This document shows, one piece after another, positions 1,722 through 53,298 of a DNA stretch of 64,000 nucleotides. Within the stretch, counting starts at the first letter, position 1; every line of letters starts with the position of its first letter. Source of the stretch: Thermodesulfovibrionales bacterium (lineage in GTDB: Bacteria > Nitrospirota > Thermodesulfovibrionia > Thermodesulfovibrionales > CALJEL01); the NCBI GenBank assembly GCA_041082235.1, contig JBDOIG010000079.1, positions 5,860 to 69,859 of the forward strand, in the 5' to 3' direction. Both the position numbers and the translations under genes were made by a program. The notes under the pieces were generated by a model. The model was given only the letters and a program-made list of their open reading frames with translations, ran no database searches and was not told the DNA's origin.

Positions 1722-1751
1722 GCACCCCAAATTTATTTGATTTTTTGGTGC
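1722..1751. repeat. C/A-run..T/G-run palindromic unit, intergenic copy (gcaccccaaa-tttatttga-ttttttggtgc)
   Basis: Inverted arms read directly. Flanks gtgcaccccaaa / gattttttgg match the copy at 52503-52534. Confidence 0.6.
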
Positions 1752-1771
1752 TCCCTCCAGTATCATGAAAT

Positions 1772-3634: not shown

Positions 3635-3635
3635 C

Positions 3636-5993
3636 CTACCAGTGAGCTATTATCCTCACACGCCTGTTAGCCTTCACATGAGGGTCATTTATATTGTCAG
3701 GTGTGGGAATCTCTTTGTATCTCAACCTCTCCTCTCCAAAATATTTAATAGAAATATCCCTCTTGATTCCATGAGCCTGAAGAAATCTCTTCGCTGAGGA
3801 TGCCCTCTTTTTACTGATCAATAGATTAAGTTTTTTATTGCCATGAGCGCAGGCATGACCCTCAATAATTATCTTTTTATATTTTTTGTCCCTAAGCATC
3901 TCCATAAATTTTAAAAGCAACCCCTCTTGTTCTGCTCCTATTTCAGTTTCTCTTACATTAAATTCTATTGAAAGCTCCATACTATTTTTATACAATTTGA
4001 TAGGCTCCTCTTCGGTCTGATTTAACGGTTTCTGAGGTACCTTCTCGGCCTGCTGAATATCCTGAAGACCTGCAGGAGATTTGACAGCCTCTGCAAGCAT
4101 TGCCTCACCATAAAATGGTGCCTTTTCATATACCCGCTTTGCCTTTTTTGGTTTTAATCCTTTTTTACTCTTATCAGCAGCATGCCATTTCTGCTCAGAA
4201 ATCCTATGCCCTGCAATCCCCAATTTCTTTTCAGTAGGAGTTTTTTTTATCCTGACTGATTCTGGCTTTGTCTCTATATCTGTAGTCTCAGCCCCCGTAT
4301 CTTTAACCACGTCTTTCTTTTTTTTCTCTGCTTCCATCCTTCCTTTGTCTGCAACAAATGTGGCAGCTGTTAATGCCTTATCCTCGGTCTTTACAGGAAG
4401 CCCCTTTTTTGCAGGTCTTTCAGATATTTTATCCTCTGTTGAGATCTGACTTAAGCTATCTTCCTGAGCAACTTCTACCTCTGGCCTCTGTATTATTATT
4501 TCTTCTGGCTTTTTTATATCCGCAAGCGTTGCTTCATCAGAAATACCTTTCTTCACAGTATCTGAGTTTCCTCCAGGAGTTATGTAATCTTTTCCTTTTA
4601 TGCTTTCCTCCTTTATACTCTTTTCCTCAAAGGTCTCCTCAATCCCTTCTTTATGGACTCCCTCTTTAGCCAATACCAGACCGTCCTCAGCAGCCTTACT
4701 GTCAGCCTGGGCAGAATTTGAAGAAATATTTTCTTCAGGTGACTCTGTTATTGGCCTGCTCACCTCTGTTTTTTTGTCCGCTACTTCCTCTACATCTTCT
4801 CTCGCAGAGGTTTCTTCTTGAGCATCGGGCCTCTGAGTCCTTGTATCTTGAGCTATAAGCTGCTGTTGCTCCTGAACTGCTTCTATCTTTTTCTGTTCTA
4901 TTTGCACCTTGCCTTCTTCTTCCTTTATACTCTTTTTTACCTCTGAAACCTCTACAGTCTGAGGGGGCATTCCCTTTGTTGGAACGTCTATAATCTCCTG
5001 AGAGCTTAATTTACCTTCTTCTGGTATAGCAGCTTCTACACCTTTGGAAGCAACTTTTTCTTCTGGCTTTCTTATCTCCTGTGAAAGCACTGCTTCATCT
5101 CTCCGCGTTATGGAATCCTTTCCTTCCATGCCTTCTTCTTTTATACGCCTCTCCTCAAGGGCCTCCTGACTCCCTTCCTTCTTTATAGCTCCCTCTTTAG
5201 CCATTACCGAACTGACCTCACCAGCCTCAATGTCAGCCCGGGCAGAAACTGGAGAAATATCCTCTTTGGGTGGTACCGCCTCCCTTATGGGCTTATCCTC
5301 CTCTGTTTTTTGCTCTATGGCTCCCTTTATATCTTCCTTCACAGAGGTTGCCTCCTGAGTATCTAACCTTTGAGTGCCTGTATCCCGAGCCACTAGCTGC
5401 TGTTGCCTTTTTTTAACTGCAATCAGGAATTCCTGCTTAGGAGAAGGCTCTGTTGCGCCTTGTTTTTCAGGTTCAGAAGGCGGAGATGTCTCACGGCTAG
5501 GATTAAAGTAAAAGACAAATCCAAGGGAAGCTGCTATGTCCGACCTTCCGCCTAAGACATAGTTCCTTAGATCAATTCTGACAGCTGTATCCTCTGATAA
5601 GGAATACTGAAGCCCCCCTCCAGCATTAAAAAGGCCCTTTGTAGATGTATTTTGATCTTCATCTATAATACCTGCACCTGCACCTATGACAAAAAAGGGT
5701 GTTAATCTTTGCTCTGGTAAAGGAATGAATGAAGAATCAAGACTGATAAATGTTGAACCTGACCTCGAAAAGGTACTCAGAATAGTTAAATCAATTGAAA
5801 AATACCGAGAGAGATTGACGCCGATGGATGGTCTTCCAAAGGTACTATCAGGGGAACTCTTTGAAGAAATCCAGCCGCCAGAAATCCCAAGGTTAATATT
5901 CCCGGCAGTATCTGTAGAATTTACAATACCAGGGGAAAATATTAGTAGAATAAGAAATAAAAATATAAATCCTCTAAGATTGAATTCTTTCAT
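3636..5993 (-). CDS. OmpA-family outer membrane protein: N-terminal beta-barrel, long acidic repeat linker, C-terminal OmpA peptidoglycan-binding domain
   Basis: 785 aa. Signal peptide and G/S/aromatic-rich beta-barrel-like region (aa 1-165), then an E/K/Q-rich region. The C-terminus IIIEGHACAHGNKKLNLLISKKRASSAKRFLQAHGI...ANRRVRIIAHW is an OmpA_C motif. Confidence 0.75.
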   Translation of the reverse strand: MKEFNLRGFIFLFLILLIFSPGIVNSTDTAGNINLGISGGWISSKSSPDSTFGRPSIGVNLSRYFSIDLTILSTFSRSGSTFISLDSSFIPLPEQRLTPFFVIGAGAGIIDEDQNTSTKGLFNAGGGLQYSLSEDTAVRIDLRNYVLGGRSDIAASLGFVFYFNPSRETSPPSEPEKQGATEPSPKQEFLIAVKKRQQQLVARDTGTQRLDTQEATSVKEDIKGAIEQKTEEDKPIREAVPPKEDISPVSARADIEAGEVSSVMAKEGAIKKEGSQEALEERRIKEEGMEGKDSITRRDEAVLSQEIRKPEEKVASKGVEAAIPEEGKLSSQEIIDVPTKGMPPQTVEVSEVKKSIKEEEGKVQIEQKKIEAVQEQQQLIAQDTRTQRPDAQEETSAREDVEEVADKKTEVSRPITESPEENISSNSAQADSKAAEDGLVLAKEGVHKEGIEETFEEKSIKEESIKGKDYITPGGNSDTVKKGISDEATLADIKKPEEIIIQRPEVEVAQEDSLSQISTEDKISERPAKKGLPVKTEDKALTAATFVADKGRMEAEKKKKDVVKDTGAETTDIETKPESVRIKKTPTEKKLGIAGHRISEQKWHAADKSKKGLKPKKAKRVYEKAPFYGEAMLAEAVKSPAGLQDIQQAEKVPQKPLNQTEEEPIKLYKNSMELSIEFNVRETEIGAEQEGLLLKFMEMLRDKKYKKIIIEGHACAHGNKKLNLLISKKRASSAKRFLQAHGIKRDISIKYFGEERLRYKEIPTPDNINDPHVKANRRVRIIAHW
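4389..5405 (-). repeat. Two tandem ~179-codon (about 537 bp) diverged repeats inside the OmpA-family gene
   Basis: Protein aa 197-375 (QQQLVARDTGTQRLDTQEATSVKED...) and aa 376 to about 535 (QQQLIAQDTRTQRPDAQEETSARED...) align colinearly. The DNA motif agctgctgttgc recurs at about 5397 and about 4858. Confidence 0.7.
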
Positions 5994-6444: not shown

Positions 6445-8067
6445 ATGGTTAGGTGGATTAAAAAGATTATTTTGCCTATTATCTCGGGGGGGTTGCTTGT
6501 CCTTTCCTTTCCGAAACCGGGTATATCAATACTTGCCTGGATAGCACTCATTCCCTTACTCTTTGACATTACTAAGAGAGATTCAACTAAGAAAGAGACT
6601 TTTATAAAAGGTTTTTTCTTTGGTGTGGTCTATTTCTTTGGTACACTCTACTGGATATATCATTCCGTTTATTTCTACGGAGGATTAAGCCTTATTCCAA
6701 GCATAATAGCTGTTTTGCTTCTTGCAGCCTATCTCAGTTTGTATACAGGTCTCTTTGCTTATCTAATTTCTTTAATCCACAACAAAACCCTCTATCCCAT
6801 GATATTGATTGCTCCTGCTATATGGGTTAGTCTTGAATATATAAGAACCTATCTCTTTACAGGCTTTCCCTGGTCAAGTATTGGTTACAGTCAGTATAAG
6901 TTCCTTTCATTGATACAGATAGCTGATATAACAGGCATATATGGGGTATCTTTTTTAATAGTAGCCTTCAACGCCGCCTTCCTTGATATTATACTTCTTA
7001 AAAAAAGGCTTTCAGAGATACCATTTTATCCTCTTGCCCCGCAACTGGCTGGCTTTCTACTTTTAATAATGGCTTTTATTGCCACCTTCTCATACGGATA
7101 CTGGAGGCTATCTCAACAACACGGCAATATGGCAAAGATAAGTATTATCCAAGGCAATATACCTCAGGATAAAAAATGGGAGCCTGCTTTTCAGCATGAA
7201 GTGATGGACATATATAAAGAACTGACAAGGAAGGTTGTTAATACAGACTCCCCCCAGCTCGTTGTCTGGCCAGAAACAGCCATACCTTTCCTGTTCAGCG
7301 AACCCTTAGAGCACCCCAAAAGCCCTGCCGAGCTTTTTGGGACCCCGTCTGCTTCGTCACCAATAAGGACAGAACAACAAAACATTAATGAGATAATGAG
7401 TAAAGACCTTATAGAATTTGTAAGGGAAATTGATACTTATCTACTGTTTGGGTCTATAAGAAAGGAGGCTGAAGACAGACAGGAGTTCTTTACAAACAGT
7501 GCCTTTTTACTCAACAAAGATGGAAAAGTCACATATATTTATGATAAAATACATTTAGTCCCCTTTGGAGAGTATGTCCCCCTCAGGAATATCTTATTTT
7601 TTATAGACAAGATTACAGTGGGCATTGGAGACTACAGGCCCGGAAAAGATACCAGAAGGGCTATTTCGCCATTTGGCAATTTTTCAACTCTTATATGTTA
7701 TGAGATAATTTTCCCTGGTCTTGTTAGGGAATCCTTAAGGGAGGGAGGAGATTTTATCATAAATATTACTAATGATGCTTGGTTTGGCAATACATCAGGA
7801 CCTTATCAGCACTTCAGTATGGCTGTTTTCAGGGCTATAGAGAACAGGAAGCCTGTTATAAGAGCAGCCAATACAGGTATCTCAGGATTTATAGATAGCT
7901 ATGGAAGGATTCAGGCGGCGACTCCTTTATTTGAAAGGATGGCAGTATCTATGAATATGAGGTTGGATAATAGAAGAACTTTTTATACAAGGTTTGGAGA
8001 CCTCTTTGTATACTTTTGCCTTGTTATCTCAATAATAACCTTATCAAGGACTATTAAATTTGCATAA
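6445..8067 (+). CDS. lnt: Apolipoprotein N-acyltransferase
   Basis: 540 aa. Multi-TM N-terminal part followed by a nitrilase-fold domain with VVWPETAIPF, ICYEIIFPG and NITNDAWFG motifs. Confidence 0.9.
   Translation: MVRWIKKIILPIISGGLLVLSFPKPGISILAWIALIPLLFDITKRDSTKKETFIKGFFFGVVYFFGTLYWIYHSVYFYGGLSLIPSIIAVLLLAAYLSLYTGLFAYLISLIHNKTLYPMILIAPAIWVSLEYIRTYLFTGFPWSSIGYSQYKFLSLIQIADITGIYGVSFLIVAFNAAFLDIILLKKRLSEIPFYPLAPQLAGFLLLIMAFIATFSYGYWRLSQQHGNMAKISIIQGNIPQDKKWEPAFQHEVMDIYKELTRKVVNTDSPQLVVWPETAIPFLFSEPLEHPKSPAELFGTPSASSPIRTEQQNINEIMSKDLIEFVREIDTYLLFGSIRKEAEDRQEFFTNSAFLLNKDGKVTYIYDKIHLVPFGEYVPLRNILFFIDKITVGIGDYRPGKDTRRAISPFGNFSTLICYEIIFPGLVRESLREGGDFIINITNDAWFGNTSGPYQHFSMAVFRAIENRKPVIRAANTGISGFIDSYGRIQAATPLFERMAVSMNMRLDNRRTFYTRFGDLFVYFCLVISIITLSRTIKFA
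7311..7347. repeat. C/A..T/G palindromic unit inside lnt (gcaccccaaaagc-cctgccga-gctttttgggacccc)
   Basis: 9-bp stem with one bulge read directly. Translated in-frame as HPKSPAELFGTP. Confidence 0.65.
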
Positions 8068-8083
8068 TGTAGGAGGTACAAAA

Positions 8084-9218
8084 ATGATAGAAAAGGAAGA
8101 ATTAAAGACAAAACTTAATGAAATAAAAGAAAAGACAGAAACGTTAAGGGGGTATCTTTGATATAGATATGCTCCTTAAAGACATCTCTGCAATAGAGTT
8201 AGAGCTGCAGAAGGCTGAGGTCTGGACTTCCCCTGAAAGGATGCGAGACCTTACAAAAAAGAAGGCAAGACTTGAGGATATCCTTGAGCCTTTTGAGTTG
8301 ATTACCTCAAAAATAAATTACATTGAAGAATCTCTTGGTCTTCTTGATGAAGAAGGAGGAGAGATATTCATCAATGAGTTAAAAGGGGAATTAAAGGCAC
8401 TTGATATCTTAATAGATGAGCTCGAGCTCAAGCACCTCATGACAGGTGAGCTTGATAGAAATAATGCTATACTCTCTATTCATCCAGGAGCAGGTGGAAC
8501 AGAAAGTCAGGATTGGGCACAGATATTAATGAGAATGTATCTCAGATGGGCTGACAGACATAACTTTAAAACAGAGATTGTTGATATACTTTATGGAGAG
8601 GAAGCTGGTATTAAGGATGTAACAATCTCAATTGCAGGCCCCTATGCCTATGGATACCTTAAGGCAGAGGCAGGTGTCCACAGACTTGTAAGGATATCTC
8701 CCTTTGATGCCAATAAGAGAAGGCATACATCATTTGCTGCTGTGCTTGTATATCCTGAGATTGAGGATGATATAACTATTGAGATAAAAGAAGAAGACCT
8801 GAAGATAGATACCTTCAGGGCCTCTGGTGCAGGTGGTCAGCATGTGAATAAGGTCTCATCAGCTGTCCGTATTACTCACATTCCAACCGGAATTGTAGTC
8901 AGCTGCCAGAATGAAAGATCGCAACATAGAAATAAGGCAATGGCAATGAAAATCCTCAAGGCAAAACTTTATGATATGCAACTAAAGGAACAGCAGGACA
9001 AAATAGAAAATCTCGTTGGTGAAAAAAAGGACATTGCCTGGGGTAATCAGATAAGGTCCTACGTACTTCAGCCTTATCAGCTTGTAAAGGACCACAGGAC
9101 AAGTATTGAAAGAGGCAATGTTGATTCTGTCTTTAATGGTGAAATTGATGAGTTTATTAAAGAGTATCTTAAAATTCAGAATAAAAAATCAAATAAAACT
9201 TTTGCTTCATTAAGGTAA
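8084..9218 (+). CDS. prfB: Peptide chain release factor 2, expressed via programmed +1 frameshift (frame 0: 8084..8158, then 8160..9218)
   Basis: A short ORF MIEKEELKTKLNEIKEKTETLRGYL ends at in-frame TGA 8159-8161. The +1 frame continues DIDMLLKD... into ORF 8169..9218, which carries the SPF and GGQ (RASGAGGQHVNK) motifs. SD gtaggagg lies upstream of ATG 8084. Confidence 0.95.
8147..8162 (+). promoter_or_regulatory. prfB +1 ribosomal frameshift site (internal SD AGGGGG + TAT CTT TGA)
   Basis: agggggtatctttgat is nearly identical to the canonical E. coli prfB site AGGGGGTATCTTTGAC. Confidence 0.9.
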
Positions 9219-9233
9219 TACAATAGATCAATT

Positions 9234-9310
9234 AAAGGAGCTTCGCTCCTTTGAAAAATGGAATAAAATTTTATTCCATTAAACTTTTGAAGGGCTCCGC
9301 ACTTCAAAAG
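9234..9310 (-). repeat. Composite double-hairpin repeat, copy A (hairpin 9234-9252, perfect 24-bp AT palindrome 9257-9280, hairpin 9284-9310)
   Basis: The reverse complement ttcaaaggagcgaagctccttt matches ttcaaaggggcgaagccccttt at 39532-39553 at 20/22 positions. cttttgaag..cttcaaaag parallels cttttgaggg..ccctcaaa at 39464-39488. Confidence 0.7.
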
Positions 9311-9510
9311 AACTGCTTCTATTTAGTTATACATAAAGATAGTAGTAATAGTAGGTTTATGAGGGTTGTTAGTAGAAAGACTGAACTTAGTTTTATTAAT
9401 GTAATTAAAGGTGCTTAAGGATATTTAAGTTCTGTTGATTGGGATGTTGATAATTACAGACAGATTAAATGAAACTGTTGGTTAAAGGATATTAACATAG
9501 TATCCACATA
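9311..9510. other. Candidate oriC / dnaA upstream control region
   Basis: AT-rich and non-coding, directly upstream of dnaA. DnaA-box-like 9-mers: gTATCCACA (9500-9508, 8/9), TTATCaACA on the minus strand (9445-9453, 8/9) and TTATaCAtA (9327-9335, 7/9). The dnaA-dnaN (10 bp) and dnaN-gyrB (88 bp) gaps are too short to hold an origin. Confidence 0.4.
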
Positions 9511-9555
9511 TTGGAAGGGTGGGATATAAAGGAGTTACTAACAGGTGTTAGTAAG

Positions 9556-10893
9556 ATGTTGAAAAAGAGTCAAGAAGAGATATGGGAAAAGATCCTCCTC
9601 AAGATAGAGGAGAGGCTTGGTAAGGGTTCCTTTGAGTTATGGTTTAAACCATTAAAACTTATTGATTTAAAAGAAGATTATGCTGTTTTTGAGGTTCCCA
9701 ACAGGTTCTTTAAAGAATGGATAGAGGAAAATTATCTCAATTATCTTACAGAGGCGTTTTCTGAAATTGCAGGCTTTACAGGTCAGTTCAAACTCAGGAT
9801 TGCTGAAAAGGATAAAGAATTAAAAAAAGAGGTTCTGCAACTTGAAAACAGAACAAAGAAACTTGCCAGTAAGGGTATATTTCTTAATCCACGATACACC
9901 TTTGAAAATTTTGTTGTTGGGCCCTCAAATCAGTTTGCACATGCTGCGGCAAGGACTGTCTCAGAACAACCTGGTTCAGTCTATAGCCCCCTCTTTATAT
10001 ATGGTGGGGTCGGCCTGGGCAAGACGCATCTAATAAATGCTATAGGTAATTATATTGTAGATAATATCTCTGGGTTAAGCGTCCTTTATGTACCCATAGA
10101 ACAGTTTACAAATGAGGTGGTTGCTGCTATCAGACATCAAAAGATGGCTGAATTAAAGGAAAAGTATAGAAATGTAGATGTGCTTCTTGTTGATGATATT
10201 CAGTTTATCTCCGGCAAGGCCACCGTACAGGAAGAGCTTTTTCATACATTCAACTCCCTTTATGATAAACAGAAGCAGATTGTTATGGCAAGTGACAGGC
10301 CACCGAAGGAGATACAGGACATCCCTGATAGATTAAAGACAAGATTTGGTATGGGACTTATTGCAGACATACAGCCTCCAGAGTACGAGACAAAGATAGC
10401 CATCCTCAACAAGAAGGCAGAGAAAGAAAAGATAAAACTTCCTGAGGAGGTATGCCACTGGCTTGCAAAGAAGATTAAATCCAATATAAGAGAGCTTGAG
10501 GGATGTCTTATAAAACTTGCAGCACACAGTTCACTGACCGGCTTACCTATCACCATGGATATGGCAAAGATTGTATTGAAGGATGTTATCGCAGATGAAG
10601 ATAGACCTGTGACACCCGAGCTTATCCAGAAGACTGTTGCAGAGTCTTTTGGTTTGAAGGTCCAGGACCTCCGGATAAAAAGGAGGACAAAAGAGGTAGC
10701 TATTCCAAGACAGGTCGGTATGTATATTGCAAGGGAGCTGACAGAGTTGTCCCTTTCCGATATAGGAAAGCACTTTGGCGGAAAAGACCATTCAACAGTT
10801 ATTTATGCCTGCAAACAGATTGAAGAAAAGATGTCAAAGGATGAAAAATTTAAAAACCTAGTTAAATCAATAATAGACAGGATTAAATCCTAA
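9556..10893 (+). CDS. dnaA: Chromosomal replication initiator protein DnaA
   Basis: AAA+ motifs PLFIYGGVGLGKTHL and LLVDDIQF, and a C-terminal DNA-binding domain (IPRQVGMYIARELTELSLSDIGKHFGGKDHSTVIYA). The ORF track starts at TTG 9511. I prefer ATG 9556 (MLKKSQEEIWEKI..) because it has an AGGTG 8 nt upstream and a DnaA box abuts 9511. Confidence 0.95.
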   Translation: MLKKSQEEIWEKILLKIEERLGKGSFELWFKPLKLIDLKEDYAVFEVPNRFFKEWIEENYLNYLTEAFSEIAGFTGQFKLRIAEKDKELKKEVLQLENRTKKLASKGIFLNPRYTFENFVVGPSNQFAHAAARTVSEQPGSVYSPLFIYGGVGLGKTHLINAIGNYIVDNISGLSVLYVPIEQFTNEVVAAIRHQKMAELKEKYRNVDVLLVDDIQFISGKATVQEELFHTFNSLYDKQKQIVMASDRPPKEIQDIPDRLKTRFGMGLIADIQPPEYETKIAILNKKAEKEKIKLPEEVCHWLAKKIKSNIRELEGCLIKLAAHSSLTGLPITMDMAKIVLKDVIADEDRPVTPELIQKTVAESFGLKVQDLRIKRRTKEVAIPRQVGMYIARELTELSLSDIGKHFGGKDHSTVIYACKQIEEKMSKDEKFKNLVKSIIDRIKS

Positions 10894-10903
10894 GGAGGCA
10901 ATT

Positions 10904-12004: not shown

Positions 12005-12089
12005 TAGAGTAATCCATGATGAGTGAAGCGATACAGGAGATAGTAAAAACTCTTTACCCATTACGGATTACTGATTAAGGAGGTTATGA

Positions 12090-14543
<2,454 letters not shown>

Positions 14544-14544
14544 A

Positions 14545-14615: not shown

Positions 14616-14632
14616 TATTAGGAGGTAAATCA

Positions 14633-23524: not shown

Positions 23525-26188
23525 ATGTCAGTGATGATAAGGGTAATAATAAATGAAAGGACGGTCTTTCTTCCTGAGCCAGTAACTGTCCTTGAGGCAG
23601 CAAAAAGGGCTGGTATAAAAATCCCCACACTCTGTCATCTTGAGGGATTGACTCCCTGGGGTGGTTGCAGGCTCTGCCTTGTGGAGATAGAAAAGATACC
23701 AAGACCCCAGACCGCCTGCACAACAATGGTTACTGATGGAATGGTCGTAAAAACAGAGACAGAGGATATTATAAAGGCAAGAAGGGCTGTTCTTGAATTT
23801 CTTTTGATAAATCATCCCCTGGAATGTCCTGTCTGTGACAAGGCAGGTGAATGCGAGCTCCAGGATGCTGTTTTAAAATATGGACCATCTCAGGGAAGAT
23901 TTAAAGAGGGGAAGAGGAAGTCTCCAGAGATAATAAAGGACCCATTAATTGTGAGAAACATGAAAAGGTGCATACTGTGCACCAGGTGTGTGAGGACCTG
24001 TAGAGAGCTTCAGGGTGCTGATGCGCTCTCCGTGATTAATAGAGGAGACAGAAGTGTTATAGAGCCATTCTCAGGTGAAAGGTTTGATTGTGAATACTGT
24101 GGTAATTGTCTGAGTGCCTGTCCTGTTGGCTCATTGATCTCAAGACTTCACCTTCATGAATACAGACCCTGGATGGTTGAGACAGTAGATGGTATATGTG
24201 GAATCTGCGGAGTTGGTTGCAGGATACTCATTCAGAAGCGAGGAAACAGCATAATTAGATTCTGGTCAGGTCTCGGGATGGAAGGTTATATGAATGAGCC
24301 AAATAATGGCCTTACCTGTGCAGCAGGAAGGTTTGGCTATGATTTTATTGATCACGAAAATAGACTTAGAAGTGCCTTTATACGGGTTGGAGATACAAGA
24401 TATACACTTCACCATGGAGAGGCTATCTCAAGGGCTGCAAGCTCCCTGGTTGAGATAAGAAAAAAATATGGTGCCTCTGCAATTGCAGGGATTGCAGGTG
24501 GAAGGCTTACAAATGAAGATGCCTATCTCTTTGGAAAATTAATTAGAGGTCTTGGTTCAAATAATCTTGATTCCATAGTAAGGCTTGGTTATCTCCAGAT
24601 GGAGCAATTTTTTGAAGAACTTCTTGGCCCAGGTGCCACTGCAAACAGGCTTCAGGGAATAGTTAATTCAGAGGCAATAATAGTTGCTGGTGGAGATCCC
24701 CTTTCAATAGCCCCGGTATTCGGGATTCACATAAGACAGGCCTATCTAAGGGGAGCAGATGTCCTCACAATAGGCCCCTGCCCCGGGCTTAAAAGGCACA
24801 GGACATGGCAGATTGAGGAGAAGTCTCTTATTGAACTGACAGGTCAGATATGGAAAAGCAGGGCCGGGAAGGTGGACCTCAGAGCCGGTGAGAAGCTCCT
24901 TTCTTCTCTTTCTGGATTTTTCAGCCAGCCTTCTCAAATTTCACCAGAGCATGGTCCCAAAAAAGGGGATAGCTTTTTTGGGATGCCAGAGCTATCCAGT
25001 ATAGTGGATAGCCTTTCCAGAAAGGAACTCATATCCATTGTCCTAGGAAACGGAATCCTCCAGAACAAAGAAGGGCCTCTCAACCTGTTCCTTTATGGTA
25101 TGATTGCCCTTTTGCTGGATGCAAGGGTGTATATTCTTCAGGAATCTCCAAATGAGCAGGGTCTCATAGACATGGGGATTCTTCCTGATATGCTTCCCGG
25201 AGGAAGGGATATATCCATTGATGCCTGGAGAGGTCATGTGGAGGAGATATGGGGGTTCCCTGTATCAAATGAAAAAGGCCATACCCTTTATGAGATTATG
25301 GAGCTTATTGAGGGAGGTCATATAAAGGCACTCTATATAGCTGGCATTGACCCTGTAACAGAGCTTCCAGGTGGAGGAAGAATCCAGAAGGCATTAAATA
25401 AAGTAGAACTCCTGATTGTGCAGGATCCATTCTTTACAGAGACAATGTCTCTTGCCCATATAGGCATACCTGTCAGTACATGGCCAGAGAGAGAAGGAAG
25501 TTTTACGAACTTTGAAAGAAGATTACAGTTTTTTAGAAAATCCATAGAGCCGGGATTGAAAGAAGAAATGCTCGAGGACTGGCAGATATTTAAAGAGATA
25601 GGACAACTGTCAGGCATATCAATGTCCTGTAATTCAGTAGATGAGATATGGAGAGAGATATGTACTGTCTCAGGCCTTCATAAAAACCTGAGCCCAGCAG
25701 AGCTAAAAAAGGGCTTACTCTGGCCTTACAAAGGAGAACCCCTGAGACATACTAAGCCTGTTATAGAGGAATGGCTGGATAGATTACAACCAGAAGATTA
25801 TCCTAAAGGTTTACAAAAGGAGGGTTTAAAAATATTACTTGAAAAATCTCCCCTGCTTTCTGCTACAATTAGCAGGTATTCTAAAGCCATAGGTTTAATA
25901 TCAGGAGGACCTGTTGTGAGGATGTCCTCAAAAACTAGACAGAGCCTGAATATTGAAGAGGAACTCAGGATAGCAGGTCCTTTTGGAGAAATGGGATTTC
26001 CTGTAAAGATAGATGATACTATTCCTGATGGTGTGCTCCTTGTTCCATTCTTTAAAGAGGGGAAAGGCCTTCTTTCCGTAACAGATTTCGCAATAAGTTC
26101 AATAGGTGTGCCTCTTATAGAGTTAAAATTACTCCGGTCAGGGTCCCCAAAAAATCGTCATTTTTGGGGTGCGGAGAAGGAGGAATAG
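23525..26188 (+). CDS. nuoG: NADH-quinone oxidoreductase subunit G
   Basis: 887 aa. N-terminal 2Fe-2S ferredoxin fold, HPLECPVCDKAGECELQD, CILCTRCVRTC and CEYCGNCLSACPVG, followed by a molybdopterin-oxidoreductase-like region. Alternative start at ATG 23534. Confidence 0.9.
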   Translation: MSVMIRVIINERTVFLPEPVTVLEAAKRAGIKIPTLCHLEGLTPWGGCRLCLVEIEKIPRPQTACTTMVTDGMVVKTETEDIIKARRAVLEFLLINHPLECPVCDKAGECELQDAVLKYGPSQGRFKEGKRKSPEIIKDPLIVRNMKRCILCTRCVRTCRELQGADALSVINRGDRSVIEPFSGERFDCEYCGNCLSACPVGSLISRLHLHEYRPWMVETVDGICGICGVGCRILIQKRGNSIIRFWSGLGMEGYMNEPNNGLTCAAGRFGYDFIDHENRLRSAFIRVGDTRYTLHHGEAISRAASSLVEIRKKYGASAIAGIAGGRLTNEDAYLFGKLIRGLGSNNLDSIVRLGYLQMEQFFEELLGPGATANRLQGIVNSEAIIVAGGDPLSIAPVFGIHIRQAYLRGADVLTIGPCPGLKRHRTWQIEEKSLIELTGQIWKSRAGKVDLRAGEKLLSSLSGFFSQPSQISPEHGPKKGDSFFGMPELSSIVDSLSRKELISIVLGNGILQNKEGPLNLFLYGMIALLLDARVYILQESPNEQGLIDMGILPDMLPGGRDISIDAWRGHVEEIWGFPVSNEKGHTLYEIMELIEGGHIKALYIAGIDPVTELPGGGRIQKALNKVELLIVQDPFFTETMSLAHIGIPVSTWPEREGSFTNFERRLQFFRKSIEPGLKEEMLEDWQIFKEIGQLSGISMSCNSVDEIWREICTVSGLHKNLSPAELKKGLLWPYKGEPLRHTKPVIEEWLDRLQPEDYPKGLQKEGLKILLEKSPLLSATISRYSKAIGLISGGPVVRMSSKTRQSLNIEEELRIAGPFGEMGFPVKIDDTIPDGVLLVPFFKEGKGLLSVTDFAISSIGVPLIELKLLRSGSPKNRHFWGAEKEE
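24956..24982. repeat. C/A..T/G palindromic unit inside nuoG (cccaaaaaag-gggatag-cttttttggg)
   Basis: Perfect 10-bp stem read directly. Translated as GPKKGDSFFGMP. Confidence 0.7.
26145..26169. repeat. C/A..T/G palindromic unit at the 3' end of nuoG (ccccaaaaa-atcgtca-tttttgggg)
   Basis: Perfect 9-bp stem. Translated as SPKNRHFWGAE, 6 codons before the nuoG stop and just upstream of the nuoH SD ggagaaggagg. Confidence 0.7.
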
Positions 26189-33496: not shown

Positions 33497-33530
33497 GGGT
33501 TAACTGAAAATTAGAAAATCAAGTCTTCAA

Positions 33531-33560
33531 GGATTCCGAAAAATCAATAGATTTTTGAGA
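33531..33560. repeat. Degenerate C/A..T/G palindromic unit, intergenic (ggattccgaaaaatc-aata-gatttttgaga)
   Basis: 7-bp stem. Aligns with ggatccccagaaaatc-gtca-gattttctgggg at 51629-51660. Confidence 0.4.
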
Positions 33561-33652
33561 ATGCCTAAAGTCCTAATTCCGTAAAAATGAGTGATTTTTA
33601 TCCTTAATGGTAAAGTAATATTTGCATATGAAGGGCATGGCTTGACTCTATT

Positions 33653-42852: not shown

Positions 42853-44310
42853 ATGTCTTTGCCTTTTTCTTTTAAACCTCTTACCCTGAAGCAAAAGCTT
42901 GTCTTAATAATGGTAGGGCTGTTCTTTGCACTCTTGAGCATTCTTTTAATTCTATACTATCAAGCAGAAAAGACCCTCTACAGGAATCTTCAGGATCAGA
43001 TAACAGCTCTTTCAAAGGTTATCCAGGTCGGAGTTGAAGAGGTTACAGGTGCATCAGATGAAAAAAGATTAAAGGCCTATCTTGCTCAATTGAGCTCTAA
43101 AGGGATAAAGGAGATATCCATTATAAGCAATTCCGATGAGATAGTTGCAAGCACAAATCCTGAAAAAATAGGCAGCTCAATAAATCCAGGGAAAAAAGAG
43201 ATGATAATAAAGGCAGAACTGGGAGAACCTGTTACTGCTGAGGGAAGAACATATAACGTAATTATACCAGTTATAACCAATAATGAGCATTATGGTTATC
43301 TTCATCTGCAGATTAATACAGAGGATTTTTCAAAAATGCTCAGATCAAATCTTTATAAGAGAATACTTGTGACATTATCAATCTTTCTCTCAGGGATAAT
43401 AATAATTGTCTTTCTCTCAGCTCAGTATACAAGGCCTATTCAGGATATTATTATAGCAGTAAGAAAGATTATGGCAGGTGACTATAAATACAGTCTCACT
43501 GTTAATTCTCCTTTAACCCCCAAAAAACTTCGTTTTTTGGGGGACCCTCCCGGTGAAGTCGAAGAATTAAATAAGAATATACAAAGGATGGCACGGATTC
43601 TTGAGACACAGCAGAAACTTCAGGAGAATCTGAGGAAGGCCGAACATCTCGCAACTGTAGGACAATTTGCAAGGGAGGTTGCCCATGAAGTAAGAAATCC
43701 TTTAAATTTTATTAATCTTACAATTGACCATGTGAGGGCAAGATTATCTCATGATAGTGCATTTCAGAAAGAAATAGAGCTTCTTGACACAGTAAAAAAG
43801 GAAGTGCACAGACTTGATGGACTCGTAAATAATTTCCTTGAATATGCAAGACCCCTCAGGGTTAATAAAAAAGAAACTAATTCAGGGGTTTTATTTAGAG
43901 AGATTATAGACTTAATAAGGACAAAGGCAGATTCAACAGGTATCCGGCTAAGAACAGATTTTTTATCCTTACCCTCTCTCATGATAGATGCAGACCTTTT
44001 TAAAACCGCCCTTATGAATATAATACGGAACTCCTTTGAGTCCATGCCTTCTGGAGGGCTGCTGAGCATAAGGACATGGGATGAGGATAAAAATTATTTT
44101 ATTGAGATCTCAGATACAGGCGAAGGCATATCAGAAGAAGACCTCGGTAAGGTCTTTGAACCCTTTTTCACAACAAAGCAGTATGGCCTCGGTCTTGGTC
44201 TTTCAACTGCAAAGAGGATAATTGAGGAGCATGGAGGCTCTATCTCTATAAAAAGTAAAAAAGGACAGGGAACCACCTTGGGGATATGCCTGAGCCTGAT
44301 AGAAGTATGA
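42853..44310 (+). CDS. Sensor histidine kinase (2 TM, HAMP, HisKA, HATPase_c)
   Basis: H-box FAREVAHEVRNPLN, N-box IIRNSFES, G-boxes DTGEGI and GLGLGLS. Confidence 0.85.
   Translation: MSLPFSFKPLTLKQKLVLIMVGLFFALLSILLILYYQAEKTLYRNLQDQITALSKVIQVGVEEVTGASDEKRLKAYLAQLSSKGIKEISIISNSDEIVASTNPEKIGSSINPGKKEMIIKAELGEPVTAEGRTYNVIIPVITNNEHYGYLHLQINTEDFSKMLRSNLYKRILVTLSIFLSGIIIIVFLSAQYTRPIQDIIIAVRKIMAGDYKYSLTVNSPLTPKKLRFLGDPPGEVEELNKNIQRMARILETQQKLQENLRKAEHLATVGQFAREVAHEVRNPLNFINLTIDHVRARLSHDSAFQKEIELLDTVKKEVHRLDGLVNNFLEYARPLRVNKKETNSGVLFREIIDLIRTKADSTGIRLRTDFLSLPSLMIDADLFKTALMNIIRNSFESMPSGGLLSIRTWDEDKNYFIEISDTGEGISEEDLGKVFEPFFTTKQYGLGLGLSTAKRIIEEHGGSISIKSKKGQGTTLGICLSLIEV
43517..43543. repeat. C/A..T/G palindromic unit inside sensor kinase (cccccaaaaaa-cttcg-ttttttggggg)
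   Basis: Perfect 11-bp stem. Translated as TPKKLRFLGDP in the HAMP/linker region. Confidence 0.8.
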
Positions 44311-47092: not shown

Positions 47093-48379
47093 TTATTTAA
47101 CCTTTGCCCTCACAATTTCCACAGTATTTGTAACCCTGAGTTTTTTAAATAGTAATTCAAACCTCGCTTCCAGCTCATCTCTAATCCTTGCCTTAACATC
47201 TTCTGGAAGGTCCCACCACCTTTTCTTTAATGCACCAAATCCCTTTTTCCTCACCTTGTATATAAACTGTTCCTCTGTTTCACCCTCTTTTTTCTCTGAT
47301 AAAAATTCTTTTTTAAGATATTCATAGACCTCCTCCCTGAAGCTTGATGGAAGATGTTTACTTTCATAAAGTATATTTTGAAAACCTGTTGCAAGATGTA
47401 TCTCCGCCGTGCCCACCTGGGGGAACATATCAAAGGCATCTTCAGGTAATGTGGAGGCTCCGTGCTGAACAGCCCCAGCAAGACCGTATTCCCTCCTTGC
47501 TATTTCTGAGAGATTTTTGAGTGTCTCAAAATCTATGCTGACCTGTTTGAGGCTTCCATCAGGAAGCACTATGCCTCCATGAGAGGTACCGGTCTGAACA
47601 CTTATCTTGCTGAGACCATCGCTGTATCCCAGAAATTTTTCCGATTTTTTGGGGACCCCTTTATCCTTTGCTTTAAATACCCTATTAAATCCATCAAGAA
47701 AGGCCCTTAATTCTTCGGGTGTGCTGTTTTTATGTCCTATCTCTCCTATCTCTCCACCTATGGATATGGAGACTCCTTCTGGTTCAAGGGATCTTATGTG
47801 TTCAGCAAGTATTGCAGTATATTCAAAATTAGGGCGCTGCTGTTCAGAAATATCATCTCTGGATAAATCCACAAGGGTTGAGCTGTCAATGTCTATATTA
47901 TAAAACTCAGCCTCTATTGCCTCTCTGATTAATTTTTTAAGATAATTAATCTCACCATCCGGGTCTTTTTCAAAGTTTCTTTTTACAATCTGAAAGTGAT
48001 CACCCTGAAGAAAAACAGGCCCTCTGTATCCTTCCCTTACAGCTGCAGAAAGGATAACAGCACTGTATTCAAGAGGCCTCTGCCTTGTATATCCTATCTC
48101 TGAGCGAGCAATCTCAAAGATAAATGCCCCGACATTGTATTGAACAGCCTTTCTAAAGGCAGCCCTTGCAACATCATAGGTGAGCCCCCTGATGTTTATG
48201 GCTGGGACAGTAAACTTAGGATAGTCCTTTGCAAAATATTCATAAAGCCCCTTTATGGAGGCAGGCCAAACGCCCCGTGACTTTGCCTCTTCTTTTAACT
48301 GAATCAGGACCTCTCTTTTTTTATCTTCATCTTCAGTAAATACAGCTTTATAAACCCTTTCATCAAGCAAATTACTCAC
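47093..48379 (-). CDS. fba: Class II fructose-bisphosphate aldolase (long form)
   Basis: PVFLQGDHFQ, VQTGTSHGG and AVQHGASTLP motifs. GTG start overlaps the stop of the upstream small ORF (GTGA). Confidence 0.85.
   Translation of the reverse strand: MSNLLDERVYKAVFTEDEDKKREVLIQLKEEAKSRGVWPASIKGLYEYFAKDYPKFTVPAINIRGLTYDVARAAFRKAVQYNVGAFIFEIARSEIGYTRQRPLEYSAVILSAAVREGYRGPVFLQGDHFQIVKRNFEKDPDGEINYLKKLIREAIEAEFYNIDIDSSTLVDLSRDDISEQQRPNFEYTAILAEHIRSLEPEGVSISIGGEIGEIGHKNSTPEELRAFLDGFNRVFKAKDKGVPKKSEKFLGYSDGLSKISVQTGTSHGGIVLPDGSLKQVSIDFETLKNLSEIARREYGLAGAVQHGASTLPEDAFDMFPQVGTAEIHLATGFQNILYESKHLPSSFREEVYEYLKKEFLSEKKEGETEEQFIYKVRKKGFGALKKRWWDLPEDVKARIRDELEARFELLFKKLRVTNTVEIVRAKVK
47627..47655. repeat. 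C/A..T/G palindromic unit inside fba (minus-strand reading ccccaaaaaatcgg-aaaaatttctggg)
   Basis: Imperfect stem, 8/9 (one G-T pair) plus one bulged T. Translated on the minus strand as VPKKSEKFLGYS. Confidence 0.65.
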
Positions 48380-48552: not shown

Positions 48553-48575
48553 AATCTCACCCCCCTAACAGTTCA

Positions 48576-48604
48576 GTACCCAAAAACTTCAGATTTCTGG
48601 GTAC
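48576..48604. repeat. C/A..T/G palindromic unit, intergenic (gtacccaaaaa-cttcaga-tttctgggtac)
   Basis: 10/11-bp stem read directly. Confidence 0.65.
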
Positions 48605-48620
48605 CTCGATACAAAAGGGT

Positions 48621-50406: not shown

Positions 50407-50509
50407 ATTGGAACCCTCCTTTCAATATATCGGAGATTCGCTGGGTAAAGGTTACTTTATCCAGCGCTGTAAAACACTGCGAGCGGGCACATCGTGGCCC
50501 TCCCTTTTC

Positions 50510-50518: not shown

Positions 50519-50530
50519 GAATAAACTATA

Positions 50531-51127
50531 ATGAATAAAATTATGAAACAAAACAGGATGAGAATTCAAGTCTATTATTACCTTTCTGCCCCCCTGTTGA
50601 TTGCCTTGATCTTTCCACGTATTATTTATGCCCAGGAGATAAACAACCTTGATGTTAAGATTAAAAGTGAGGAACTTGTAGTTTCTACATCAATAAGTCT
50701 TAATGAGGGATTTATAAATGAGATTAAAAATGGTATCCAGAAGGAACTTGTCTTTTATATAGATCTCTTCAGGATCTGGAAGTACTGGCCTGATGAATAT
50801 GTCTTTGGTAATTCTATAGTAAGGAAGATTGAGGGAGATGTAATAAAAGGTGAATACATAATGAGCTCTTTTGATAGAAACAGAAAGGTGATTACTGAAA
50901 AGAAATTTAAAAGCCTTGAATCAATGCTTAAGGCTATGGCAGAGATAGGTCCTTTCCCACTCATAAATATTAAAGGTATGGAGTCCGGTGATTATTATGT
51001 GAGGGTTACTGTAGAATCAAGATTGAGAAAACTGCCTCCTGTGGTGGGCTATATCCTATTTTTTATACCTGAAAAGGAGTTTTCAATAACAAAGGATTCT
51101 CCCATATTCAGGCTTGGTTCAAGATGA
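50531..51127 (+). CDS. DUF4390-like secreted protein preceding NtrY-like kinase
   Basis: 198 aa with a signal peptide. Size and position upstream of an NtrY-type kinase fit DUF4390. The start may be ATG 50543. Confidence 0.5.
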   Translation: MNKIMKQNRMRIQVYYYLSAPLLIALIFPRIIYAQEINNLDVKIKSEELVVSTSISLNEGFINEIKNGIQKELVFYIDLFRIWKYWPDEYVFGNSIVRKIEGDVIKGEYIMSSFDRNRKVITEKKFKSLESMLKAMAEIGPFPLINIKGMESGDYYVRVTVESRLRKLPPVVGYILFFIPEKEFSITKDSPIFRLGSR

Positions 51128-53298
51128 AAGCCTATAGAAACATAGTTATACTCCTTTTGCTGCTCAGTCTGTTTTTTGCTATGAATATTTATCTCTTCAC
51201 GAGATTTATAAAACTTGGTAATGAACCCCTTTATGCAATACTTTTTCTCGCAGGGATTAATCTTAATCTTCTTGCCCTGCTAACACTTTTCTTCTATGTT
51301 GGTAAGAGCCTGCTCAGACTCTATATAGACAGAAAAAGGGGGGTTCCGGGACATAGATTCCAGATCCAGCTCGTGAGTATCTTTGTAATCCTTACCCTCA
51401 TACCGGGGATGTTTCTCTTTATTATAGGAAGTGGTCTTGTGACAGGTTATATTGACAGATGGATGACACCTCAAGGTCTTTCCTCTCTTGAGCGATCGCT
51501 TGCAATGGCAAGGACATATTATGAAGACAAAAAGGCTCAGCTTAAATCTGAAGGGCAGAGGCTGAGGGATGTTATTAACAGAAGTCGTGGTTCAGAAGAG
51601 AGATATCCGAAATCGGAGATCAAAGGCGGGATCCCCAGAAAATCGTCAGATTTTCTGGGGTACGAGTATGGCGTATGGGAAATAATTAAATCTCCTGATG
51701 ATGAACTTGCAAAAGAGGCATGGCTTAAAGGAGAATCCTCCGACATATTAAAGACAGATGAAGCCGAATATATAAGGATAGCCCTTCGTTCAGAAAGGGG
51801 AATTTTGAAGGGCGCCTTAAAGGTTCTGCCAGAAATAACAGAGTCAGTGGAGAGATTAAAAAGAGATTATGAGGAACTTTCTCTAAAATTAAAATGGAAG
51901 TTTCCTCTCAAGATAAATTTTGTTATGACCTTTGGTTTTTTTACACTTCTTATTATAATGCTTGCCCTGTGGACTGGTTTGAAGATATCAAAAAGGATAA
52001 CAGTGCCTGTGGCAGAACTTACCGAGGCAACCATGGCCGTAGCATCAGGGAATCTTGATGTACGGCTAAAGACAGAACAGGGCCGTAATGATGAAATTGG
52101 CTATTTAATAAAAAACTTCAATTTTATGATAGAGGAGCTCAAAAACAGTAAAGATGAATTGCAGGAGGCATACAGGCAGACAGAGGAGCAAAGGATAAGA
52201 TTATCAAGCATACTTGAGCATATCCACACGGGTGTCCTTTTTATTGATAGTAATGGCGCAATAGTATCTATAAATAAGGCAGCAGAAAAGATACTTGGTA
52301 TTTCTCAGGATGGGTTTTTGGGAAGAAATTATAAAGACCTTCTTTACTACATTGGCTCGGATGAGCTGGATAAACTCATAAGAGGTATAAGGCTCAGGGA
52401 CCTCAAAGGGATAGAAAAGGAGATAAGGCTTACAATCAAAGAAAGGTCATTAATCCTCAGGGTATTCATAACAGGCTTGATAATACCTGAAAAGAAGGGT
52501 TTGGTGCACCCCAAAAAATCCAAAGATTTTTTGGAACCACCTGAGGTTATAGGTTTAATAGTGGTCTTTGATGACATCACTGATATTGTTAATGCCCAGA
52601 GGGCTATGGCATGGCAGGAGATAGCCTCGAAGATTGCCCATGAGGTCAAAAACCCCCTTACACCAATAAAATTATCCACCGAAAGACTTATAAAAAAGTG
52701 GCAGCAGAAAGACAGTGATTTTGGTGAGGTCTTTGAAAGCTCTACAAGGACTATTATAAGAGAGGTGGAGAGTCTGAGAAGGCTTGTGTCTGATTTTTCC
52801 CAGTTTGGCAGGATGCCGCAGATTAAAAAGAGGCCTGTTGATTTAAGGGAGATATTAAGGGAGGTTTATTATCTTTATGCCGGTTTTAAGGACATAAGAA
52901 TGCATCTTGAACTGCCTCCTCATGAGGTAGTTGTTGAATTGGACCCTGAGCAGATAAAAAGGGTTTTTATCAATGTAGTTGATAATGCAATTGAGGCTAT
53001 AAAGAGCGGCCGTGATTCAACTGTTAGTATTGGGTCTGAAGGGAAAGGAAATATTTATATAAGTCTTGATATTGATTATGATACAAGTCAGGTGAGGGTA
53101 ACGATTGCAGACGACGGCCCCGGGATATCTGATGATATAAAGGATAAACTTTTTATGCCTCATTTTACCACCAAAAAGGGAGGTTCAGGTCTGGGACTTG
53201 CAATTGCAAACAGGATTGTCACAGAACACAGGGGATTGATTAAAGTAAAAGACAATGAACCTAAGGGGGCAGTCTTTATAATAGAAATACCTTTATAA
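51124..53298 (+). CDS. ntrY: NtrY-like sensor histidine kinase (multi-TM, HAMP, PAS, HisKA, HATPase_c)
   Basis: 724 aa. 4 N-terminal TM segments, HAMP (VPVAELTEATMAVASGNLD), a PAS region, H-box IAHEVKNPLTPI, and DDGPGI and GGSGLGLAI boxes. Confidence 0.8.
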   Translation: MKAYRNIVILLLLLSLFFAMNIYLFTRFIKLGNEPLYAILFLAGINLNLLALLTLFFYVGKSLLRLYIDRKRGVPGHRFQIQLVSIFVILTLIPGMFLFIIGSGLVTGYIDRWMTPQGLSSLERSLAMARTYYEDKKAQLKSEGQRLRDVINRSRGSEERYPKSEIKGGIPRKSSDFLGYEYGVWEIIKSPDDELAKEAWLKGESSDILKTDEAEYIRIALRSERGILKGALKVLPEITESVERLKRDYEELSLKLKWKFPLKINFVMTFGFFTLLIIMLALWTGLKISKRITVPVAELTEATMAVASGNLDVRLKTEQGRNDEIGYLIKNFNFMIEELKNSKDELQEAYRQTEEQRIRLSSILEHIHTGVLFIDSNGAIVSINKAAEKILGISQDGFLGRNYKDLLYYIGSDELDKLIRGIRLRDLKGIEKEIRLTIKERSLILRVFITGLIIPEKKGLVHPKKSKDFLEPPEVIGLIVVFDDITDIVNAQRAMAWQEIASKIAHEVKNPLTPIKLSTERLIKKWQQKDSDFGEVFESSTRTIIREVESLRRLVSDFSQFGRMPQIKKRPVDLREILREVYYLYAGFKDIRMHLELPPHEVVVELDPEQIKRVFINVVDNAIEAIKSGRDSTVSIGSEGKGNIYISLDIDYDTSQVRVTIADDGPGISDDIKDKLFMPHFTTKKGGSGLGLAIANRIVTEHRGLIKVKDNEPKGAVFIIEIPL
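51633..51660. repeat. C/A..T/G palindromic unit inside NtrY-like kinase (ccccagaaaatc-gtca-gattttctgggg)
   Basis: Perfect 12-bp stem. Translated as IPRKSSDFLGYE. Confidence 0.85.
52511..52534. repeat. C/A..T/G palindromic unit inside NtrY-like kinase (ccaaaaaatc-caaa-gattttttgg)
   Basis: Perfect 10-bp stem. Translated as HPKKSKDFLEPP. The flank gtgcacccc is shared with the copies at 1721 and 7310. Confidence 0.8.

Follow-up and report, generated by a model that had tools for sequence, protein, structure and literature searches.

A probable family of very small single-hairpin mobile repeats, inserted in frame in conserved genes of a Thermodesulfovibrionales bacterium

Background

The palindromic elements of Rickettsia (RPEs; Ogata et al. 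2000) are palindromes found in frame in unrelated conserved genes, to whose products they add a family-specific peptide, according to PMC10969869 and PMC3733652. Repetitive extragenic palindromes (REPs; Di Nocera et al. 2013, PMC3733652) are 20–40 bp palindromes, one end of which bears an unpaired tetranucleotide tag, and the GTAG tag tolerates the variants GYAG, GTRG, and GTMG. Some families of GTAG and CGTC REPs occur in distant taxa, a minority lie wholly within open reading frames (ORFs), including UvrD and tRNA-synthetase genes, REP ends sometimes provide stop codons, and the CGTC superfamily has no known transposase (PMC3733652). Here we analyze a window of 64,000 nt from a Thermodesulfovibrionales bacterium (phylum Nitrospirota; contig JBDOIG010000079.1 of assembly GCA_041082235.1, positions 5,860 to 69,859), the whole of which is meant by "the window" below, and the short palindrome dispersed through it in ten copies. 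An earlier note, made from the sequence alone, had proposed a mobile palindrome resembling RPEs. That proposal is supported by a comparison of filled and empty sites and by an independent insertion in the nuoG gene of a sister genome, and we consider it probable that the copies belong to a REP/RPE-like family of selfish mobile repeats, each a very small (~36–45 nt) single hairpin.

Other small repeats also offer points of comparison. REPINs are inverted REP pairs linked to a flanked gene for a REP-associated tyrosine transposase (RAYT) (Bertels and Rainey 2011, PMC3116915), and PMC5861425 and PMC3116915 cite the small dispersed repeats (SDRs) of cyanobacteria (Elhai et al. 2008). In Coxiella, the QMITE2 MITEs (transposable elements of the miniature inverted-repeat type) extend or fuse ORFs; QMITEs measure 150–400 bp and have direct repeats of defined size classes (PMC5896051).

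Results

Ten dispersed copies in the window

All ten palindromes listed in the earlier note were recovered at the same positions. The exact search pattern it had suggested matched twice in the window and not once in 100 shuffles, while a relaxed pattern (CCCAAAAA and TTTTTGGG, 8-nt arms, at most one mismatch in each, spacer of 3–20 nt) found nine copies, when 100 third-order Markov simulations averaged 0.22 and never gave more than 2. A profile built from the ten copies (nhmmer) found no further copy in the 64-kb window, the next match having E = 4.7, and in a general hairpin census this was the sole hairpin sequence type that recurred at many dispersed sites. Stems measure 9–12 bp and loops 3–8 nt. 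Seven of the ten copies are intragenic and three intergenic, and all are singletons, with the closest neighbors ~0.9–1.2 kb apart. The host genes were confirmed with Pfam as encoding Lnt, NuoG, a Cache/HisKA histidine kinase (HK1), a class II fructose-bisphosphate aldolase (fba), and an NtrY-like kinase.

Genic copies are insertions absent from close relatives

Relatives were found through the aldolase, which yielded 80 loci from Nitrospirota genomes. The closest were two Thermodesulfovibrionales metagenome-assembled genomes (MAGs), with aldolases of 87–89% amino-acid identity. MAG A is our working label for contigs L002 and L209, putatively a single genome; MAG B comprises L003, L206, and L211, all of GCA_046292975.1. 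The contigs of both are syntenic with the window at ~87–92% nucleotide identity. All seven genic copies appear as clean gaps in the DNA alignments of these relatives (88–90% nucleotide identity for the syntenic genomes compared), with insert lengths of 39, 42, or 45 nt.

In lnt, the 39-nt in-frame insert (7306..7344, the GGGGTC-side or R strand being the minus strand; peptide LEHPKSPAELFGT) is missing from the 90%-identical Lnt P0122 and, as a 39-nt gap, from the DNA that encodes it in L211. Two inserts lie in nuoG: the 42-nt in-frame insert at site 1 (24944..24985, plus strand; peptide HGPKKGDSFFGM) is empty in L206, L209, and the remaining NuoG homologues, and the 39-nt insert at site 2 (26136..26174, plus strand), four codons ahead of the stop and read in another frame as SPKNRHFWG, is empty in L206 and L209, with C-terminal tails that vary among homologues. 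The 39-nt in-frame insert of HK1 (43513..43551, minus strand; peptide LTPKKLRFLGDPP), between the sensor/transmembrane part and HisKA, is empty in syntenic L002. The 45-nt in-frame insert of fba (47621..47665, minus strand; peptide DKGVPKKSEKFLGYS) is empty in L002, L004, L005, and 12 further orthologues, while L003 of MAG B keeps a 21-nt scar from which the 24-nt core is gone. Within the NtrY-like kinase, the 42-nt in-frame insert at site 1 (51626..51667, plus strand; N-terminal region; peptide GGIPRKSSDFLGYE), a G-C stem variant, is empty in L003, and L002 has unrelated sequence at that place; site 2 (52500..52541, minus strand; between PAS and HisKA; peptide LVHPKKSKDFLEPP), also in frame, is empty in L002, L003, and L005, with an insert of 42 nt (45 against L003).

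The check that the earlier note had proposed, alignment of Lnt, NuoG, the aldolase, and the kinases with orthologues, thus found lineage-specific in-frame insertions in all seven cases. In protein alignments with more distant orthologues, every insert falls in a length-variable region. Among 120 listed NuoG and 120 listed Lnt homologues, peptides of this type were found only in the window proteins, in NuoG of MAG B, and in NuoG of Dissulfurispira thermophila; two other regular-expression matches in those lists were unrelated sequences. In MAG B, nuoG holds a separate 42-nt copy (EVPKKSQDFLGYEQ) at another site, which is empty in both the window and MAG A, and the nuoG gene of the D. thermophila isolate has an oppositely oriented copy (LHPKGSYDFLGTP), seen in two assemblies. 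In a further locus, L062, a 448-aa ORF takes its final residues and its stop codon from a copy. Since the sister genome and D. thermophila hold separate insertions, the alignments indicate that insertion is recent, recurrent, and independent. In the AlphaFold model of Lnt (mean pLDDT, the predicted local distance difference test, of 86.5), the insert lies in coil with a pLDDT of 56–58, and the stretch that contains it does not align with solved Lnt structures. The fba insert could not be mapped in the same manner, as the aldolase has no homologue by sequence in the PDB.

Anatomy of the repeat unit

When oriented, the unit reads AGGGGTC, CCCAAAAAATC, a loop, GATTTTTTGGG, and GT(G/A)C, with stem arms CCCA(A/G)AAAATC and GATTTT(T/C)TGGG around the loop of 3–8 nt, a left flank of (C)AGGGGTC, and a right tag of GTGC or GTAC. 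The recurring flanks that had been remarked on earlier (gtgcacccc and gggaccc) are real: they are the two ends of the unit seen from the other strand, and they define its orientation. The right end GGGGTACGAG is common to two independent insertions, that of NtrY-like site 1 and that in nuoG of MAG B (L206). This common end and the conserved flanks show that the mobile unit is more than the palindrome alone; it spans ~36–42 nt, and the genic inserts of 39–45 nt include the conserved asymmetric flanks. Relative to the sense strand, the genic copies are oriented four one way and three the other. An orientation bias was considered and dropped, given this 4 to 3 division with respect to transcription and one of ~5 to 4 with respect to a probable replication origin near 9.3 kb.

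At the stem position (A/G opposite T/C) where the search pattern permitted all four combinations, we counted 35 A-T pairs, 10 G-C pairs, and 4 unpaired cases (Fisher p = 5e-7), a sign that pairing in the stem counts for active copies. Loops on the GGGGTC strand are mostly purine-rich, among them GNRA-type loops (such as GCAA, GAAA, GTAA, and GAGA) and triloops (such as AAA, AGA, and GAA); pyrimidine-rich loops (TTT, TTGC, TTCC) occur in only 3 of 24 oriented copies outside Armatimonadota, and in the Armatimonadota family described below 23 of 29 loops are G...A tetraloops. Together, the variation in stem pairing and the loop composition point to a folded single strand, of one strand in particular, as the form that may propagate.

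At nuoG site 1, the loop GGATAGCT is complementary to host sequence AGCTATCC immediately after the insert (window 24955-25010), and it also repeats GGATAGC ~35 nt downstream. Templating of the loop from nearby host DNA was rejected as a general explanation: the nuoG site 1 matches are 7–8 nt, and other copies match over only 5 nt, which is the chance level.

Distribution beyond this lineage

Almost no copies were seen in ~1.2 Mb of aldolase neighborhoods from other Nitrospirota genomes, so the abundance observed here is lineage-specific. A metagenome scan with the core pattern gave at least 120 matches, and the figures that follow are among the matches listed. Apart from one unrelated human-gut locus that was set aside, there were 84 distinct metagenome matches. 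Of the 84, 53 also have the family flanks, on which the search pattern placed no condition, and 24 of these 53 lie on non-Armatimonadota contigs. The same core and flanks are found together in metagenome contigs of 38–71% GC; when all non-gut, non-Armatimonadota matches are taken, GC ranges from 32% to 71%. Further in-frame copies occur in PheT and HolB genes of other contigs. Three matches came from viral contigs, none of which (0/3) had the family flanks. The human-gut matches were rejected as family members, as they represent one conserved locus, AACCCCAAAAAATCCATAGATTTTCTGGAGTTC, of a ~58% GC bacterium, with an A-C mismatch and no family flanks (L097, L098, L102, L103, and ~40 other loci).

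The hairpin occurs in another phylum as well. In ~30 contigs of ~57% GC, it forms the core of a longer composite repeat of a high-copy family. The AccC protein of this population is 77–80% identical to Chthonomonadaceae proteins, which assigns the population to Armatimonadota. There, the composite repeat is also found in frame within a UvrD-like helicase-nuclease and a Ser/Thr kinase. The composite extends over at least 150–200 nt, with tandem 21-nt units (CCCTTCCCCTCAAGGCCGACG) and a CCCCAATTTGGG module, and can be read in frame as PQGRRPS or GVGLEGK repeats (L190 1613-5233, L107 1786-3792, L202, L143, and others).

Different recurring in-frame inserts were observed in NuoG proteins of other Thermodesulfovibrionia lineages: a GGEVTVGG-type insert at four or more sites in P0011, and EVRKTEVRGQKSEVRG in P0009. 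A similar segment, SYELGVRRQNSELR, precedes the hairpin insert in a HolB-like gene (L092, 8357-9487). There may thus be further coding-tolerant repeat families in this class.

Age and decay of copies

Predicted DNA folding separates recent from older copies. The six genic copies found only in the window fold at −7.4 to −13.2 kcal/mol, among them nuoG site 1 (−11.0 kcal/mol, z −4.5), nuoG site 2 (−8.3 kcal/mol), HK1 (−12.7 kcal/mol), NtrY-like site 1 (perfect 12-bp stem, −13.2 kcal/mol), and NtrY-like site 2 (perfect 10-bp stem, −10.2 kcal/mol). The HK1 stem, given as 11 bp at 43517 in the earlier note, measures a perfect 12 bp with a 3-nt loop. Older copies shared with relatives fold at only −2.9 to −5.9 kcal/mol. 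The fba palindrome reported earlier is present; its stem, however, is degenerate (−2.9 kcal/mol, z −0.5). As a 21-nt scar remains at this site in MAG B, the older, decayed fba copy appears to predate the split from that genome.

Two of the intergenic copies are likewise weak as hairpins and old. The copy at 1722 (1717..1758, no strand assigned; nhmmer E = 0.0017; −4.2 kcal/mol) lies 14 nt upstream of a ChaN-like gene that starts at 1772, has GCAC/GTGC at both flanks, which leaves its orientation ambiguous, and has a diverged orthologous copy at the same place in contig L211 of MAG B. The copy at 48576 (48568..48609, no strand assigned; −5.9 kcal/mol), between fba and the upstream 289-aa ORF, has diverged counterparts at the orthologous position in L002 and L003; in the L002 version, paired changes (CCCC to CTCC and GGGG to GGAG) keep the stem. 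The third intergenic copy (33523..33570, plus strand; nhmmer E = 1.5e-5; −7.2 kcal/mol) is degenerate and lies between nuoN and an EamA-family gene, in an intergenic region that is not conserved in L209. The weak folding of shared copies against the strong folding of window-only copies agrees with a well-formed hairpin being inserted and afterwards decaying neutrally or being deleted, and speaks against a maintained function at the genic sites.

These observations bear on the possibility that the copies are functional cis-elements selected at each site rather than selfish DNA, acting as RNA or DNA structures in transcript stabilization, termination, or pausing, or as the site of a conserved hairpin-binding protein. 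Such a role would agree with sequence conservation over genomes of 38–71% GC, with the compensatory A-T/G-C stem variation, with the mostly purine-rich loops of one strand, GNRA-type included, with the pairing kept through CTCC/GGAG at 48576 in L002, and with single-copy occurrences just downstream of housekeeping genes such as those for EF-G and NadE. We nevertheless consider it unlikely, because 7 of the 10 copies lie mid-ORF in unrelated genes, in both orientations with respect to transcription and replication, and the sister genomes have the same genes without them. The hairpin is moreover lost in older copies, with one core deleted; the copies share neither a gene context nor an Rfam family, and a loop of 3–8 nt rules out a double-stranded operator. 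Readings as an uptake signal or a double-stranded operator had been set aside in view of the sequence conservation across phyla and the variable arm spacing.

Junctions and the search for a parent element

Across eight empty-site comparisons, the flanking direct repeats measure 7, 5, 3, 2, 1, 0, 0, and 0 nt; the longest are CCAGAGC (7 nt, nuoG site 1), AAGAG (5 nt, MAG B), and GAT (3 nt, fba). The two longest, along with arms that look like abutted inverted repeats and a loop variable in length and sequence, would be expected if the copies were stubs left by near-precise excision of a larger insertion sequence (IS) with GGGGTCCCCAAAAAATC-type end repeats. Each palindrome would then consist of two terminal inverted repeats and a remnant, and within genes only the stubs that restored the frame would survive. 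In 6 of the 8 events, however, direct repeats are absent or only 1–3 nt long; the flanks are consistently unlike one another (GGGGTC vs GTRC), the outermost bases are the least conserved, and the GCAA loop recurs in unrelated lineages. The genes fba, lnt, and nuoG are important ones, and they would first have had to withstand disruption. A search of the window, the relatives, and ~2.4 Mb of hairpin-centered loci, though not of whole genomes, gave neither a parent IS with the same terminal inverted repeats nor any longer element with such ends, and the parent was also missing from plasmids and phages. We rate this explanation somewhat below the cis-element one. A blastn search of 72,556 plasmids and 50,697 phages gave no match covering at least 80% of the element, and a lead from an apparent likeness of GGGGTC..CAGAAAA to the ends of Tn21/Tn501 (Tn3 family) was dropped.

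Reading frame and encoded peptide

Translation bears out the seven peptides quoted in the earlier note and shows each genic copy to be in frame: the inserts are always a multiple of three in length and free of stops in the host frame. Among ten internal genic copies (of which the window has six and MAG B and D. thermophila one each, the others being the PheT (L197) and HolB (L092) copies, both putative insertions), the frame CCC-A(A/G)A-AAA was used in all ten, for which the chance under uniform frame use is ~5e-5. Copies in other frames number two, both at the extreme C-terminus (nuoG site 2 and L062). The resulting P-K-K...F-L-G arises from either orientation because the core is palindromic. 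Tolerance had been attributed to arms that cannot encode stops. It is true that the arms cannot, although whole inserts hold stops, in loops and flanks, in 0–2 of the six frames; as an explanation this is incomplete, since the single shared frame implies that selection on the peptide counts too. The one shared frame and the multiple-of-three lengths give indirect support to translation of the inserts and to a filter in which selection acts on their peptide.

The strong preference for one frame among internal copies and the similar peptides in unrelated proteins could also be taken to mean that the PKK..FLG peptide is itself selected as a convergent motif, such as a recognition or cleavage site, with the DNA palindrome a by-product. 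We find this very unlikely, given that three window copies are intergenic, that the flanks and stem are DNA-level features identical in both orientations, and that gene-end copies use other frames. The inserts also occupy variable loops, one of them of low confidence, and are absent from the sister genomes, and Armatimonadota copies are read in a different frame, as PQKI.RFSG.

A comparably slim chance attaches to inserts that are never translated, being either removed at the RNA level or passed over during translation (bypassing), after the manner of T4 gene 60 or the mitochondrial "byp" elements. Short hairpin-forming coding inserts do resemble byp elements, and the codon ahead of the insert equals the last insert codon in three cases (CCA GAG in nuoG site 1, GAG in L206, and GAT in fba). 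Byp inserts, however, being skipped, need not keep the frame and may contain stops, whereas the inserts here are all multiples of three, stop-free in the host frame, and, when internal, strict in their frame preference, none of which bypassing requires. Assembly or sequencing artifacts, which chimeric reads could produce and which the mostly metagenome-assembled sources might invite, have a negligible probability, as two Logan contigs that were assembled independently, L001 and L205, match the window at 100% identity across five copies, two separate isolate assemblies both contain the D. thermophila copy, and the frame, flanks, and orthologous conservation are biologically coherent.

Discussion

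How the element might move

If these are mobile repeats, as we think probable, the element would spread within a genome by placing new copies at unrelated sites in both orientations. Genic copies that survive would be those with a multiple of three bases, free of stops, in a permissive loop, and read as Pro-Lys-Lys...Phe-Leu-Gly, and they would be translated as a short extra loop. The hairpin, unmaintained after insertion, would then decay. Mobilization would presumably occur in trans, through an enzyme that recognizes the folded single strand and the flanking tag; an HUH/tyrosine transposase of the RAYT/TIRYT type is the obvious candidate, and either the enzyme or the element would have crossed phylum boundaries. 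Of this picture, the recent and independent insertions, the orientation of the unit, the bias in frame, the decay, and the occurrence in more than one phylum are observed, and the single-stranded hairpin intermediate and the identity of the enzyme are inferred.

Several results weigh against this interpretation. No transposase domain was found in the window ORFs scanned, which are housekeeping genes only. A phmmer search with E. coli RayT, a single distant query, returned nothing at E ≤ 10 among 11,523 ORFs from ~2.4 Mb of loci, a sample that included no whole genome. When the 1,266 ORFs that lie within 3 kb of hairpins were clustered all against all, no protein family proved common across lineages, and the clusters consisted of repeat-derived pseudo-ORFs, prepilin-like proteins, and housekeeping genes that are orthologous. 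Instead of GTAG, the tag reads GT(G/A)C, and on the strand reading GT.. it stands 3' of the hairpin. Neither a fixed target-site duplication nor a conserved target motif was found at the eight junctions. Because the junction repeats are inconsistent, the element lacks sharp ends; this is unusual where a transposase does the cutting and a poor fit to a fixed staggered cut. Finally, some copies may have acquired a function, as the 48576 copy may have been exapted as an intercistronic hairpin upstream of fba.

A more far-reaching version, which we regard as doubtful though worth stating, is that of a ~40-nt self-contained hairpin nano-transposon, conserved across phyla because unrecognized machinery moves it, inserting without a defined target duplication and routinely remodeling loops of essential proteins. 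Such machinery could be a horizontally transferred non-RAYT enzyme specific for hairpins, or a conserved enzyme of the host by which single-stranded DNA is processed.

Comparison with described families

The earlier note knew of no such element for this kind of genome, and further negatives agree with it. Rfam gave nothing relevant, either at the gathering threshold (window and three loci) or at E ≤ 10 (around two copies), and a full-text literature search of the core and flank sequences returned unrelated primer-like matches or none, and the plasmid and phage searches had given no match over at least 80% of the element. The novelty does not extend to intragenic palindromes as such, since REPs and RPEs of that kind were already known (PMC3733652, PMC10969869).

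As for RPEs in those same sources, the copies are lineage-specific among orthologues, occupy structurally permissive sites, and have intergenic counterparts (PMC10969869, PMC3733652); all seven genic copies are lineage-specific in-frame insertions into conserved ORFs. RPE-1-type elements measure ~100–150 bp and are confined to Rickettsia, whereas the present element is a single hairpin of unrelated sequence, with inserts of 39–45 nt and no match in the literature search, found in free-living Nitrospirota and also in another phylum, where its sequence is the same. With REPs it shares the form of a short, dispersed, multi-copy stem-loop palindrome. Its conserved tag reads GT(G/A)C here and G(T/C)AG (GTAG or GCAG) in the Armatimonadota relatives. 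It differs from REPs in an upper stem made of an A6/T6 tract where REPs are GC-rich, in having no dimers among the window copies, and in an intragenic share of 7/10 compared with the REP minority. REPINs are similarly short, high-copy, hairpin-forming, and non-autonomous, with stem variants that preserve pairing (PMC3116915). Instead of inverted pairs 20–100 bp apart, however, the window holds ten single hairpins, and the search of the sampled DNA turned up no RAYT.

Like SDRs, the element is a mobile repeat well under 100 nt that lies inside other sequences and has no known transposase. SDRs are said to be 21–27 nt long and restricted to Nostocaceae, and it is by description only that they are set apart from the present element. 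QMITE2 copies resemble ours in standing in frame within ORFs or supplying a C-terminal tail and stop, as the nuoG site 2 and L062 copies do. The present element differs in being ~40 nt long and in its inconsistent junction repeats (0–7 nt), and the eight empty-site comparisons showed no target-site duplication of fixed length such as a MITE would leave. We therefore treat it as a new family, set apart by its tiny size, its A/T-tract stem, its strict frame usage, and its conservation across phyla.

Other features of the window

A probable chromosomal replication origin lies at 9230-17080, with a hairpin-rich gap (9230-9510) upstream of an ORF at 9511-10893. This ORF and the one at 10904-12004 match in position the dnaA and dnaN calls of the syntenic MAG B contig; two ORFs of ~815 aa follow, which by size are candidates for gyrB and gyrA, and the GC skew changes sign near 8 kb. 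An RF2-like ORF (8067-9218; PCRF and RF-1 domains) starts ~100 nt past the lnt stop. At 349 aa, it is 28 aa shorter than its 377-aa MAG B orthologue, and this shortfall suggests that prfB may use the classical +1 programmed frameshift. On the minus strand, a 785-aa ORF (3636-5993) has only a C-terminal OmpA domain, preceded by a ~670-aa N-terminal extension with no Pfam match; the MAG B gene at that position encodes 119 aa.

Conclusions

How such tiny palindromic elements move is an unsolved question, and palindromes in coding sequence are known from Rickettsia and a few REP families. The present family is useful in this respect because the element is so small (~40 nt), because its insertions are recent enough for a base-level comparison of filled with empty sites in genomes that are ~90% identical, and because the same hairpin and flanks across phyla narrow the hunt for the enzyme that recognizes them. 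On the practical side, the copies are lineage-specific indels in the markers nuoG, fba, lnt, pheT, and holB, where they can mislead alignments, phylogenies, and the calling of genes in MAGs. The bias in reading frame, for its part, offers a view of what selection tolerates in proteins.

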